DNA of 64,000 nt from Dictyostelium discoideum (GCA_000004695.1 CM000154.2:3424001-3488000), one strand, 5' to 3'; positions 22,671 to 31,281 are shown, numbered from the stretch's first letter. Notes: generated from the sequence alone by a model not told the origin. Numbers and translations are program-made.

Positions 22671-24375
22671 ATGATAAGCAATAAAAAAGTAGCAGTTATT
22701 GGGGCAGGATTGAGTGGATTATGTTTTTCAAAATATATTAATCAAATTGGGGATTTAGAACCAACAATTTTTGAAAAAACCAATGATATTGGAGGTGCTT
22801 GGTCAAATTCATCAAATAGAAAATCATGGGATAGTTTGAAGTTAAATACAAATCAATTATCAAGTAAGTTTTATTAATTTTTTTTTAATTTTTTATCTTA
22901 TTATAATTATAATTAATAAATTATTAATCCTTTTTTTTTTTTTTTTTTTTTTATTAGTGTCATTTTCAGATTTTCTATTTAAAAATCAATTCCCAAATAA
23001 AGAAGAAATTTTCCCATCAAATAAAACATTTTATGAATATTTAAAAAGTTTTGTTGAAAATTTTGAATTAATAAATTATATAAAATTTAATTCAAATGTT
23101 ATTAAAATTGAAAAGAATGTGGTTGTAGATGAAAATGAAAGTAATTGTAAATGGAAAGTTGTATGGGAATTTAATAATAATAATAACAATAATCAATCAA
23201 TAATTTATTCAGAAATATTTGATTATGTTGTTATTTGTACTGGTGCATTCTCAAAAAGTTCAACAAAGAATGATTTAGAGATTAAATTGAAACAATTTAA
23301 AGGTGATATAATACATAGTGAAAATTATAGAAATCCTGAATTATTAAAAGGAAAGAAAGTGCTTATTGTCGGATCATCATTTTCAGCATGTGAAATTGCA
23401 AATGATGTATGTAAAGAAGTTTCAAAATGTATTCAAATCGGTCATGAAAATTTCTATGCAGTAAATACATTTTTACCAAATGAAGATGGTAAACATATAC
23501 CTTGGGATATGTTATTTTTCACTCGTAAATCAATTTATGAAAAAAATAATAATTATAAAACTGATCAAGAGTTATGGGAAGTTTCAAAGAAAATGTTAAT
23601 ACAAATTTGCCCAAATCAAGATTTATCCAAAAATCCAAATTCTAAAATACCAATTAAAACAACACCTGAAAATCAACCACCAATTGGTTTTACAGTTTCA
23701 AGAAATTATTATGAAAATGTTGAATCTGGTAAAATTATTACATATACAGGTGATAATTATAAAATCCACTCAGTAGATGGTAATTCAATAACATTTTCAA
23801 ATGATAAAGGTGAGGTTAATACTGTTGATAAAATTGATTCAATTATTGTATGTAGTGGATACCAAATAGAGTTCCCATTTTTAGAAAATGATGTTTTGGA
23901 AGATATTTGTTATGATTCAAAAGATCAGTTCTTGCCTATGTGTATTTATGAACATACTTTTCCAAGTAAGTTCAAAAGTATTGCTTTTATTGGTTGTGTT
24001 AAAGGAATATTCTTAACAGAAATTGAAATGTATTGTCGTTGGGTTTCATTAGTATTTTCAGGTAAACTAGAATATCCAAATGATGAAAAATTAAGTCAAG
24101 GTAAAAATGATATTTTAAAATTAAGATCAGTCAGACCTCGTCCACAATTCCCAATTCTTGATTGTGTTTATCATTGTGATAAAATTGCTAAAGAAATTGG
24201 TTGTTTACCTGATTTTGAATCAATTAAAATCAATGATCCTGAATTATATAATAAATTATGGAATGGATTCTTTTGTCAAGCATCATATAATTTAATTGGT
24301 CCTGGTTCAAATCCAACATTAGCAAAAGAAATAATAAATAATTATTATGAAAATTATCAACAATTTAAAAATTAA
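22671..24375 (+). CDS. Flavin-containing monooxygenase (FMO)-like protein, paralog a. Model: join(22671..22863,22958..24375), about 536 aa.
   Basis: FAD-binding site [13 protein letters not shown]…GGAW is present. After the intron the conserved (M)SFSDF block follows. The FMO-identifying motif FxGxxxHxxxY appears as [12 protein letters not shown] second dinucleotide-binding site is [20 protein letters not shown]. Donor is GTAAGT at 22864 and acceptor AG is at 22956-22957. The split codon is a+tg. Confidence 0.75.
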
Positions 24376-24807
24376 ATAATTTATCAAAAAAAAAAAATAA
24401 ATTCAATTTTTATATATAATAATATATTTGTAATAACAATATGTGATAAAATACCAATTATCTATGAATTTAAAATACTCTCTACTTATAATTATCATCA
24501 TTTATTTAAAAATAATTAAATTAATAAATATTTAATAAGTTAAATATTATTTGTTTATTAAATTATTTTTCTTTTCACAGAATTAAAAAATTTAAATAAT
24601 TAATATTTTAATAAATAAATTATATAAAATTTATAAAACAATAATTTTGAACAATAATTACAAATAAACAAAATTAAAACACAAATAACAAATATTAAAA
24701 ACTGTTACAATAATACATATAATTATTATTTAAATTAACACCACTCTTAAATTATCCTTGGATTCTAACAGAATAAAATATAAAATAAGTTTTTTAAATA
24801 AATAAAA

Positions 24808-24848
<41 letters not shown>

Positions 24849-25114
24849 CTTTAAGATTAAAGTATAAAATAAGAAAAGAAATAAAATAGTTTGAAAAATA
24901 AAATTGGAAGGGGATGAATTGTAATAATTAATAAAAAATATAATGTCATTCTTTAAATTGTATGAAATAAAAAAAAAATATGTGTAAAATTGTGTTTTTT
25001 CAAAAAATTATTAAAGATTGTTAAAAAGTATAAATTTTCAAATTAGAATAAGTATAAAATAAAGAAAAAATAATAAAATAATAATAAAATAATAATATTA
25101 ATAGTAATAATAAT

Positions 25115-25119
<5 letters not shown>

Positions 25120-28179: not shown

Positions 28180-28238
<59 letters not shown>

Positions 28239-29424
28239 AGGTGATGATGATTTTACAAGTGAAATTTTTGATTTTTTAATTGTTTGTACTGGTGTATTTT
28301 CAGAACCACAAGAATGTGGATTATATGAAAATGAATTAAAACAATTCACAGGTAAAATTATACATTCACAAGATTATAAAAATAATAATGATAGATCTGG
28401 AAAATCAATAGTTGTATTAGGTTCATCAATGTCAGCATGTGAAATTACTTCAGAAGTTTCCAAGGTAACTTCAAGATGCTATCATGTTGGTCATGAAGTA
28501 CATCATGTTTATAATAAACATTTACCATATAGAAAAAATCAAATTGCACCATTGGATTGTGTAATTTATCAGAGAAAGGAGGCATATGAAAGACAAGATT
28601 TACCAAGGGAAGAGTTTTTAAAACAAAAAAATAAAATGAATAAATTGTATTGCCCTAAACAAGATTCAGATAGATATCCAAATTCAAAGATTGCAATTGC
28701 ACCAGGATACAAATCTATGGGTTTAGTAATATCATCAGAGTATGTTACTCAATTTGAAAATGGCTCAATATCAGTATTTTGTGGTGACCAATTTACAATA
28801 TCCTCGTCGTGTGGAAAGAGTGTAACTTTTTCAAATTGTAAAGGTGATAGTCATACAGTGGAGGATATTGATGAGATTATAATTTGTAATGGATATAAAA
28901 CTGATTTATCATTTTTTGAAAAAAGTGTACTAGACGCTCTGGATTATAAACCAGAAGATACGAAAAGACCAATATTACTATACAGAAATCTATTTGCAAA
29001 AGATTTGAAAAATATTGGTTTTGCATCTTTTTTTAGAGGTTTATTCTTTTGTGAAATGGAGTTAATTACAAGATGGATGTGTTTGGTTTTTACTGGTAAT
29101 CATCCATATCCAAATTATTATCAATATAAAAATGGTATAAAAGATAGAAATTTTAAAATTAATCTTGATAATGCTCCACAATATTTAATTGCTGGGTCAA
29201 CAACTTATTGTGATTTGGTTGCATTAGAAATTGGTGTTTTACCTGATTTTGATAAATTAAAAATAACAGATCCAATATTATATGATCTCATTTGGAATGG
29301 TCATTTTACACCTGCAATATATAGATTAGTTGGACCTGGTTCAAACCCTAAACTTGCAAAAGAACTAATTGAAAAAGTAAATAACAATTATAATATTTAC
29401 ATAAAAAAAATAAATAATAAATAA
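27742..29424 (+). CDS. FMO-like protein, paralog c. Intronless, 560 aa.
   Basis: KKVAIIGFGPAGICSTK…GGVWS, TMSFSDF, FTGKIIHSQDY (FxGxxxHxxxY) and GKSIVVLGSSMSACEITSEV are present. It is colinear with paralogs a and b, and carries an extra poly-Asn insert. Confidence 0.75.
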
Positions 29425-29667
29425 TAATTTTTTAAAAGTATGTTTTTTTTTTTTTTTTAATTATTTATTTATGTAAATATTATTTATTATTTTAATATTT
29501 CAAGATTGTTAAAATTTCTTATTTTAATTTTAGATTTTAAAAATATCTGATTTTTTTTTTTTTTAACTTTTGAAATTTTTTATTTTTGTTTTTGATTTTA
29601 AAAATATTTTTATTTTTCATTTTTTTTTTTTTTTTTTTCATCAAAAAAAAAAAAAAATTAATATGAA

Positions 29668-31281
29668 ATGATAAATAATAATAATAAAACAGTTGCAATT
29701 ATAGGATTTGGACCAGCAGGTATATGTTCAACAAAATCATCAATTGAAAATGGATTAATACCAACAGTATTTGAAATGTCATCAGAATTGGGTGGTGTTT
29801 GGAATCCTTCAATTGGAAAATGTTGGGATAATCTTACAACCAATGTCTCAAGATATGTTATGTGTTTTTCAGATTTTGATTATCATAATGATGATTATGA
29901 TATTTTTCCAAATTATAAAACAGTATATCAATATCTAATAAACTATGTGAATCATTTCCAATTAAAAAAATATGTAGAATTTAATTCAAAAGTTATTAAA
30001 GTTGAAAGAATTGATTCTGATTCCAATACTATAGTAACAACAACCTCGGAGGAAAAAGAAGAAAAAGATAAAATAATTAAAATAACTTGGATAAATAGTA
30101 ATGATAATAAAACCTATTCAAAAATATTTGATTATTTAATAGTTGCAACTGGATTATTTTCAAAACCACAAAATTCAACAATGTATGAAAATGAATTAAA
30201 ACAATTTACAGGTAAAATTATTCATTCACAAGATTATAAAAATAATGAAATTTATAAAGAAAAGAATGTTTTAGTATTAGGTTCATCAACATCAGCATGT
30301 GAAATATCAGCAGAGATATCAATGGTAACCAAGAAATGTATAATTGTGGGTCATGAAAATTCATATATCTATAGTAAACTTTTACCAAATGAAAACGGTT
30401 CAAAATTAGTACCATTAGATTCCTTACTTTTTCAAAGATCAAAATCATATGAACAACAATCATTACCAAAAGATGAATTTTCAAAATTAAAAAAACAAAT
30501 GAATTTAAAATATTGTCCAAATCAAAGTAAAGAAATTAATCCAACCTCAAAGATAATTGTAAATACACCAACTGATAAAACATTAGGATTTGTAGCATCT
30601 TCATCATATATAGAACAAGTTGAAAATGGTTTTATTTCAGTTCATTGTGGTAATGAATTCACAATAAAATCATCATCAAAGAAATCAATCAAAATTTCAA
30701 ATTGTTTAGGTGAAACTCATACAGAAGATAACATTGATTTCGTTATACTTTGTAATGGATATCAACCAGATTTATCATTTTTTGATGAAACCATATTAAA
30801 TTCAATTGATTATTTACCATCAGATTCAAAAAGACCACTTTGTTTATATAAGAATATATTTGCTCCAAATTCTAAAAATATAGCATTCATTTCATTCTTT
30901 AGAAGTTTATTTGTTGCAGAAGTTGAATTAATGTCAAGAATGATAACAATGATATTTAGTTCAAAAATTCCATATCCAACTGAATTTGAAATTAAAAATG
31001 GTTTTATAAATAGAGGAAATAATAATATTAATAATAATAATGATCCACCTTATTTTTTAGTAGCTGGTTCAACAGTTTTATGTGATCAAATTGCAAAGGA
31101 GATTGGTGTATTACCAGATTTTAAAAAATTAAAACAATCAGACCCAAAATTGTATGATCAATTATGGAATGGTTATTTCACTCCTGCGACATATCGTTTA
31201 GTTGGTAATGGTTCAAATCCAAAAGTTGCAAAAGAAATGATTGAAAAAGTTAATAAAATATATGATAAACTTTGTAATTAA
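29668..31281 (+). CDS. FMO-like protein, paralog d. Intronless, 537 aa.
   Basis: KTVAIIGFGPAGICSTK…GGVWN, VMCFSDF, FTGKIIHSQDY and EKNVLVLGSSTSACEISAEIS are present. It is closest to paralog c. Confidence 0.75.
   Translation: MINNNNKTVAIIGFGPAGICSTKSSIENGLIPTVFEMSSELGGVWNPSIGKCWDNLTTNVSRYVMCFSDFDYHNDDYDIFPNYKTVYQYLINYVNHFQLKKYVEFNSKVIKVERIDSDSNTIVTTTSEEKEEKDKIIKITWINSNDNKTYSKIFDYLIVATGLFSKPQNSTMYENELKQFTGKIIHSQDYKNNEIYKEKNVLVLGSSTSACEISAEISMVTKKCIIVGHENSYIYSKLLPNENGSKLVPLDSLLFQRSKSYEQQSLPKDEFSKLKKQMNLKYCPNQSKEINPTSKIIVNTPTDKTLGFVASSSYIEQVENGFISVHCGNEFTIKSSSKKSIKISNCLGETHTEDNIDFVILCNGYQPDLSFFDETILNSIDYLPSDSKRPLCLYKNIFAPNSKNIAFISFFRSLFVAEVELMSRMITMIFSSKIPYPTEFEIKNGFINRGNNNINNNNDPPYFLVAGSTVLCDQIAKEIGVLPDFKKLKQSDPKLYDQLWNGYFTPATYRLVGNGSNPKVAKEMIEKVNKIYDKLCN

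Follow-up and report, generated by a model that had tools for sequence, protein, structure and literature searches.

Recurrent gene conversion as the likely source of a near-identical 3' segment in two tandem flavin monooxygenase genes of Dictyostelium discoideum

How can two neighbouring genes be clearly diverged over most of their length and yet end in nearly the same sequence? This question is raised by a stretch of the Dictyostelium discoideum AX4 genome (GCA_000004695.1, CM000154.2:3424001-3488000; the whole 64,000 nt are called the window below, and positions are counted from its first letter), in which positions 22671-31281 of the + strand hold four intact, same-strand genes resembling flavin-containing monooxygenases (FMOs; PF00743), here called a to d. 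A first-pass annotation had proposed a tandem FMO array in which the ends of a and b form a textbook conversion tract. The best explanation of our results, very probable when taken as a whole, is that the array arose through successive tandem duplications and that the near-identical ends of a and b, 2.8 kb apart, reflect recurrent, lineage-specific and non-reciprocal interlocus gene conversion, a process that has homogenised the same 3' segment time and again, and separately in the D. discoideum complex, in D. citrinum and in D. dimigraforme.

The shared 3' segment and its history

In the genomic alignment of the two AX4 genes, most coding DNA outside the tract is 69-80% identical; the identity then switches abruptly to 98.0% (339/346 bp, 7 mismatches) over a tract that takes in the final 113 codons together with the stop codon and the base after it and that recurs in b at an offset of 2817 from the copy in a (Table 1), and from one base past the stop codon the 3' flanks fall to ~50-58%. 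Uniform divergence of a and b, which the first-pass annotation had named as the observation that would speak against it, is hence not what the alignment displays. The coding part upstream and the tract differ in nucleotide identity (74.5% vs. 97.9%), amino-acid identity (63.1% vs. 97.3%) and synonymous divergence (dS; 0.644 vs. 0.064), and third codon positions are mismatched at 147 of 415 sites before the tract as opposed to 4 of 113 inside it (Fisher p = 9e-14), in keeping with the earlier description of a segment ~98% identical even at third positions. The longest identical run measures 113 nt between a and b and at most 24 nt (13-24 nt) in every other pair of the four genes. The location of the tract had thus been recognised correctly, albeit with starts that lie 9 nt (24040 in a) and 22 nt (26870 in b) inside it and are therefore 13 nt out of register.

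Comparison with related genomes placed this pattern in a historical frame. The set comprised 15 a/b sequences from 8 genomes and included six other Dictyostelium genomes with syntenic a/b arrays, namely two assemblies of D. citrinum, one of D. dimigraforme and three assemblies labelled D. discoideum (ACTFIR and ACTFIW) or D. cf. discoideum (ACTFIY), hereafter FIR, FIW and FIY. In exon 2 upstream of position 23650, the genes group by orthology: the b copies cluster at a bootstrap of 100%, and those of a from the D. discoideum complex and D. citrinum at 87-99, while the a gene of D. dimigraforme sits outside the a clade. In the tract (24031-24372), by contrast, the a and b copies of one genome or species join each other (bootstrap 100 in D. 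citrinum, 99 in D. dimigraforme, 91-94 in FIY and 77-81 in AX4). Within one genome, a and b are 69% identical upstream and 98.0% in the tract in AX4, and the corresponding values are 71% and 96.8% in FIR, 74% and 96.7% in FIY, 70% and 94.7% in the first and 71% and 97.1% in the second D. citrinum assembly, and 73% and 89.8% in D. dimigraforme. Tract copies of the D. discoideum complex and of D. citrinum share 87-91% with each other, compared with 94.7-98.8% inside one genome; between AX4 and the three other genomes of the D. discoideum complex the tract is 95-97% identical.

Individual sites agree with the trees. All of the 104 orthology-supporting sites lie at or before position 24022, and of the 34 sites at which the AX4 pair is set apart in both copies from the D. 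citrinum pair, 21 fall in the tract, from 24051 onwards. The neighbouring pair c/d served as a control, with 287 orthology sites vs. 3 concerted sites; no conversion was seen within c/d or between the subpairs, where identical runs are short (13-24 nt), and c and d follow orthology throughout. As far as sequence alone can tell, every hallmark of interlocus gene conversion and concerted evolution is present in the a/b tract. One further stretch of raised a/b identity (86-91%; Table 1) precedes the tract, but could not be called as conversion, as orthology-supporting sites persist there and orthologs still cluster in the tree of 23651-24030; it may go back to an exchange that was older or patchy, or it may just be conserved.

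Other explanations fare considerably worse. If one ancient conversion, or a late duplication of just the 3' part, had preceded the species split and no exchange had followed, the 5' boundary would readily be expected at the same place in all lineages. Such a history predicts, however, that tract distances within a genome equal those between species, whereas 1.2-5.3% and 9-13% (D. discoideum complex to D. citrinum) are seen, respectively, and it is difficult to reconcile with the pairing of a and b by genome at 77-100% bootstrap. Furthermore, dS between the AX4 tract copies (0.064) is lower than that between AX4 and FIR orthologs (0.145-0.19), so that the latest AX4 exchange postdates the split of these two genomes. 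We consider a single early event very unlikely.

Reciprocal unequal crossing-over, yielding chimeric a/b genes, has a very slim chance of being correct. The arrangement as direct tandem copies would be conducive to it, and both the larger rearrangement in FIW with its orphan a exon 1 and the single a/b-type gene of D. firmibasis (see below) might be taken as its products. A single crossover, however, would alter the copy number and give the chimera one parent's flank on each side, whereas AX4, FIR, both D. citrinum assemblies and D. dimigraforme keep both genes, each of the two still having the upstream body and the 3' flank that belong to it; the exchange was therefore that of a patch with two end points, that is, conversion. 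Since the flanks are distinct and the copy number is constant, with four genes kept in AX4, FIR, D. citrinum and D. dimigraforme, it was also non-reciprocal.

Strong purifying selection, whether its target is the protein, codon usage or a nucleotide element embedded in the tract, is scarcely credible as the sole reason why 113 codons have stayed alike, even though C-terminal conservation is fairly high throughout the family and the ratio of nonsynonymous to synonymous divergence (dN/dS) of orthologs is low in the tract (0.06-0.29). Synonymous sites have been homogenised along with the others, as the dS values above indicate, and a and b share species-specific substitutions, as reflected in the higher identity within genomes than to D. 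citrinum orthologs. The same region of c and d is no more conserved than their remainder (dN 0.311 vs. 0.314 elsewhere), and the region is therefore not unusually constrained in the family; nor was any Rfam match or antisense open reading frame (ORF) detected in the tract. Finally, an assembly or annotation artefact, for example, collapsed reads over similar paralogs, can be given a negligible chance: nothing specific speaks for it, except that some long-read comparison assemblies may hold indel errors (frameshifted b), whereas 7 positions and the flanks set the two AX4 copies apart, a second NCBI record set (KAM99479xx) contains the same a, b and d proteins, and six independent assemblies repeat the pattern, each with its own substitutions.

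Several points nevertheless weigh against recurrent conversion as favoured here. The trees were built by neighbour-joining on p-distances with bootstrap rather than by likelihood tests, and synonymous distances between species are near saturation in this AT-rich genome. Support for the pairing of the AX4 copies is only modest because few sites vary in the tract. The GC content of third codon positions is not raised in the tract (0.05-0.06 vs. 0.11-0.12 upstream), which thus carries no mark of GC-biased conversion. The mechanism is read indirectly, from its footprint in the sequence, and the conserved boundary could have been set by a single ancestral event, with all later exchanges kept inside it, which would be a variant of recurrent conversion rather than a rival to it. 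In any case, the textbook conversion tract of the first-pass annotation stands as far as conversion is concerned, with the tract tree following the genome and the upstream tree orthology, but has to be amended from one event to recurrent events with a fixed boundary. A literature search on gene conversion in Dictyostelium returned nothing relevant.

A fixed boundary and other fates of the pair

The 5' edge of the tract lies at a cluster of 14 a/b mismatches in 25 nt (Table 1) that codes for IFLTEIEM in a (residues 412-419) and VFRFEVEL in b. It is found at this same cluster in all seven a/b-pair genomes except FIW, in which a and b are ~99% identical throughout and no edge exists, while the 3' edge coincides with the end of homology at the stop codon. 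Projected onto ancestral mammalian FMO2 (AncFMO2), the cluster aligns to residues ~377-384, beside positions 373 and 378, which are active-site positions of mammalian FMOs (PMC7948450), and residues 379-380 correspond to L-T in a and R-F in b, next to residue 378. The tract itself spans AncFMO2 ~385 to 492, including the 416-425 loop that shapes substrate entry in AncFMO1. The 80-residue insertion that builds the mammalian substrate tunnel (PMC7948450) lies upstream of the tract, in the part where a and b are least alike (39-52% amino-acid identity). The proposal that conversion homogenises the substrate-channel region therefore finds no support: the tract begins just past the residues aligned to 373 and 378, and the tunnel insertion falls where the two proteins differ most.

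A plausible scenario for the fixed boundary would be as follows. After the duplication that gave a and b, the upstream part would have escaped homogenisation, possibly aided by selection for different properties of the two enzymes, and at ~70-75% nucleotide identity it may by now be too diverged for homologous exchange. The 3' island, on the other hand, would have remained similar enough for heteroduplex formation and would thus be converted repeatedly, with the mismatch cluster halting the extension of the heteroduplex. A bolder proposal, advanced only tentatively and in our view rather unlikely to hold, is that, across the radiation of D. discoideum, D. citrinum and D. dimigraforme, the 5' edge is kept in place by selection on the a- and b-specific residues adjacent to the active site; it comes with a second lead, the transfer between amoebae and bacteria taken up below. 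If true, one part of the enzyme, a catalytic and substrate module, would be diverging, while recurrent conversion holds a C-terminal module in common; this would be a natural, genetically tractable case of selection-delimited concerted evolution.

Partial conversion is not the only fate that has befallen the pair. In FIW (L003, GCA_054859355.1), the gene at the a position is b-type from ~380 bp upstream of its ATG to the stop codon (99% identical to the b of the same genome), but retains the 3' flank of a. An intact orphan exon 1 of a, with the start of the intron and its 5' splice site, lies ~4.4 kb upstream, and the ~4 kb of DNA in between have no counterpart here in AX4 and contain, on the minus strand, a 504-aa signal-peptide-like ORF. 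In effect, the whole of a has here been overwritten by b, along with an insertion, which marks the pair as recombinationally active. In FIY (L006 11750-13445), b lacks exon 1, which was lost at a long (ATT)n junction, and carries deletions of 1 nt and 10 nt; in the first D. citrinum assembly (L001 12205-13926, GCA_054859145.1), b has deletions of 1 nt and 8 nt. These two b copies, which are annotated as part of a 942-aa a+b fusion (P0061) and as a 485-aa protein (P0005), look like pseudogenes, although long-read indel error is possible. Together, partial conversion, whole-gene overwriting and decay suggest considerable redundancy between a and b.

D. firmibasis represents yet another state, with only three FMO genes (L004 8092-13425), one of the a/b type followed by c and d. 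Its a/b-type gene is closer to a in the upstream part (77% vs. 71-73% identity), and its single copy would fit a loss of b as well as an a/b duplication that took place after the split. In D. dimigraforme (L036 10001-14295), an annotated 943-aa protein (P0062) joins an upstream Zn_ribbon_10 gene and FMO gene a, which is probably a merger of gene models and not a true fusion. FIR, FIW and FIY are ~88-91% identical to AX4 at the locus (20822-24453 and 27522-34000), with an ortholog dS of 0.15-0.19 that is far above expectation for strains of one species; judging from these distances, the D. discoideum labels of the assemblies may hide cryptic species.

Gene models, enzyme family and relatives

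All four gene models (Table 1) are free of internal stops. That of a is 100% identical to XP_635985.1/Q54GT4 of AX4, and those of b and d agree at every residue with XP_635987.1 (DDB_G0289927) and XP_635989.1 (DDB_G0289931), respectively. Unlike these, the uninterrupted 560-aa ORF of gene c has no exact match in the protein collection, but aligns over its full length with its D. firmibasis ortholog P0007. The deposited AX4 model of c thus probably differs from this ORF, and the start, a modelled intron or the length of the poly-Asn run may be the difference. The introns of a and b are of the GT..AG type and split the same codon after its first base (phase 1), and c and d are intronless; the shared position and phase and the lack of introns in c and d are as described by the first-pass annotation. 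The single a/b-type gene of D. firmibasis has its intron at the same codon position and in the same phase, the intronless paralog P0006 lacks it, and the paralog P0009 has an intron at a different place, after residue 36; both gain and loss of the a/b intron are compatible with this distribution. The spacer between a and b (1101 bp) is far longer than those between b and c (549 bp) and c and d (243 bp). The window has ~22% GC and many poly-Asn and poly-Gln runs, and scans of the array region for tRNAs and Rfam families gave no matches.

Table 1. Positions of genes, motifs, tract copies and repeats (window coordinates unless L003 is given)
Feature	Position	Strand	Remarks
Gene a	22671-22863 + 22958-24375	+	536 aa; spliced model
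Exon 1 of a	22671-22863	+	FAD motif GAGLSG 22701-22718; Asn61 equivalent 22845-22847
Intron of a	22864-22957	+	94 nt, GTAAGT..TAG, phase 1
Exon 2 of a	22958-24375	+	FMO motif 23296-23328; NADPH-site variant GSSFSA 23371-23388
Raised a/b identity	a 23660-23860 = b 26477-26677	+	86-91% nt
Boundary cluster	a 24006-24030 = b 26823-26847	+	14 a/b mismatches in 25 nt
Tract copy in a	24031-24376	+	last 113 codons, stop codon, 1 base
(AAT)67 microsatellite	25069-25266		within the 1.1-kb a-b spacer
Gene b	25477-25669 + 25796-27192	+	529 aa; spliced model
Exon 1 of b	25477-25669	+	FAD motif GAGPSG 25507-25524
Intron of b	25670-25795	+	126 nt, GTAATT..AAG, phase 1
(TTA)18	25705-25757		within intron of b
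Exon 2 of b	25796-27192	+	FMO motif 26116-26148; GSSFSG 26191-26208
Tract copy in b	26848-27193	+	offset 2817 from a copy
Gene c	27742-29424	+	560 aa, intronless; GFGPAG 27799-27816; FTGKIIHSQDY 28345-28377; GSSMSA 28420-28437
(AAT)19	28180-28236		poly-Asn run in c
Gene d	29668-31281	+	537 aa, intronless; GFGPAG 29704-29721; FTGKIIHSQDY 30205-30237; GSSTSA 30280-30297
FIW, orphan a exon 1	L003 2665-2973		
FIW, inserted DNA	L003 2974-6969		
FIW, b-type gene	L003 6970-9159		

The four proteins form two subpairs, as had been proposed: amino-acid identity is 70.5% for a/b, 56.5% for c/d and ~41% for a or b vs. c or d, and the protein tree groups a, b and the D. firmibasis a/b-type protein on the one hand and c and d on the other, each with 100% bootstrap, while two more Dictyostelium paralogs from other loci branch outside both. 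Ortholog dN/dS values of 0.15-0.28 across all four genes point to purifying selection on each of them. A profile search for relatives added D. dimigraforme alone; its word prefilter missed even AX4 c and d, so that the absence of other dictyostelids from its results is no evidence. Searching the literature for Dictyostelium FMOs or DDB_G02899xx identifiers returned nothing.

As expected for a four-gene FMO array, all four proteins match PF00743 over nearly its full length (profile positions 2 to ~481-494 of 532; E 1e-50 to 1e-61, 172-208 bits vs. a cut-off of 22), and their best solved relative is AncFMO2 (6SEM, E 2.5e-50). The GxGxxG motif for flavin adenine dinucleotide (FAD) is present in each (GAGLSG in a, GAGPSG in b, GFGPAG in c and d), and so is the FMO-identifying linker motif FxGxxxHxxxY, which is defined as FxGxxxHxxxY/F (PMC10682829) and reads FTGKIIHSQDY in c and d. 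Its final Y is followed by R or K (…HSENYRN, …HSQDYKN). Type I Baeyer-Villiger monooxygenases carry the fingerprint FxGxxxHxxxW[P/D], and by this fingerprint, with Y in place of W, the four proteins do not belong to that group. At the second site, for nicotinamide adenine dinucleotide phosphate (NADPH), the sequences GSSFSA, GSSFSG, GSSMSA and GSSTSA correspond to a GxSxx[A/G] variant, and the canonical GxGxxG/A is not found at this site; the GxGxxG form occurs in mammals and yeast, and GxSxxA is reportedly typical of bacterial FMOs (PMC10617207). Of the motifs that the first-pass annotation had reported as retained, the FAD and linker motifs are confirmed in all four proteins, whereas the second nucleotide-binding site is likewise present in all four but only in its variant form. 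Asn59 of a aligns to Asn61 of AncFMO2, which in mammalian FMOs is an active-site residue stabilising the hydroperoxyflavin, and the same column holds Asn in b, c and d. No C-terminal hydrophobic anchor is apparent: the maximal 19-residue hydropathy is 1.3-1.5, the tail is polar, and the proteins end at about profile position 492 of 532.

By these features, the four proteins are assigned to the class B flavoprotein monooxygenases of the FMO family, while to the membrane-anchored mammalian FMO1-5 subfamily they show resemblance rather than membership. They would presumably be soluble enzymes that use FAD and NAD(P)H and form a C4a-hydroperoxyflavin for the oxygenation of soft nucleophiles or heteroatoms. 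A point that counts against this enzymology is that the columns of mammalian Asn194 and Arg223, key cofactor contacts of mammalian FMOs (PMC7948450), are not conserved (F/F/M/T and T/S/K/K in a to d), and cofactor handling may therefore differ from that of the mammalian enzymes. Any metabolic role of the array, such as the oxidation of xenobiotics or bacterial metabolites or the tailoring of secondary metabolites suggested earlier, would be a guess.

The relation to known FMOs is graded. With AncFMO2 and the animal FMO1-5, the proteins align from the N terminus to residue ~515, and share the FAD and linker motifs and the Asn61 equivalent as well as a Lys in the column of residue 373 that FMO1 also carries (PMC7948450); they differ in lacking the C-terminal anchor, in having GSSxS[A/G] rather than GxGxxG/A as NADPH motif, in the two cofactor-contact columns, in an 80-residue insertion region (query 264-351) that fails to align, and in an identity of only ~26-28%. 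The soluble bacterial FMOs, for example, the trimethylamine monooxygenases of Methylophaga and Roseovarius (2VQ7, 2XVE, 5IPY), are likewise soluble class B enzymes with a GxSxxA-type NADPH motif (PMC10617207), but only the N-terminal ~220 residues align (E ~1e-20), and the C-terminal half including the converted tract is without counterpart. The closest non-dictyostelid relatives found are two bacterial or metagenomic proteins, P0010 and P0012 (31-32% identity over 97-98% of the length, E 1e-70 to 1e-74), with similar NADPH sites (GNAYSGCEIA and GSAFSGLEIA). In a sparse tree that also held vertebrate and glomeromycete FMOs, the two join the Dictyostelium FMOs at a bootstrap of 100%, but they are encoded by single genes on bacterial contigs (P0012, L007 4001-5500; P0010, L008 4001-5539). 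The P0012 gene stands in the context of an OEP/RND/MFS efflux operon and has a neighbour with a Legionella_OMP domain. The FMO subfamily may thus group with proteins from amoeba-associated, Legionella-like bacteria, and transfer between amoebae and bacteria may have taken place. A scan of bacterial genomes by a generic FAD-motif pattern yielded distant FMOs only (21-30% identity) and is uninformative for such a transfer.

Significance and comparison with known systems

The genes were already annotated in AX4, conversion between tandem paralogs is textbook knowledge, and no concept is changed by the present findings. What is new is a documented instance in which one 113-codon segment was re-homogenised in at least three species, across seven genomes, up to the same edge, with none of this in the adjoining c/d pair, while related genomes exhibit alternative fates (whole-gene overwriting, pseudogenisation or a single copy). 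For practical purposes, any phylogeny or dating of a and b must omit the last 346 bp. As Dictyostelium is a haploid organism in which recombination is efficient and genetic engineering easy, the a/b pair could serve as a natural assay of what limits a conversion tract, be it a homology threshold, mismatch repair or selection. It could also help to address whether partial conversion hinders or helps functional divergence, and which substrates amoebal FMOs act upon.

Conversion that stops at a boundary within tandem duplicates is familiar from the human G-gamma/A-gamma globin genes, RHD/RHCE and the red/green opsins. The Dictyostelium pair differs from these in belonging to a haploid social amoeba with ~22% GC, in reusing the same boundary in at least three species, and in having a tract bounded by the stop codon and a cluster of coding mismatches instead of a simple-sequence hotspot. 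In common with them, it consists of direct tandem paralogs of which only one part is homogenised, with a sharp edge at which the diverged part adjoins the converted one, and in this converted part the paralogs within a species are more alike than the orthologs between species.

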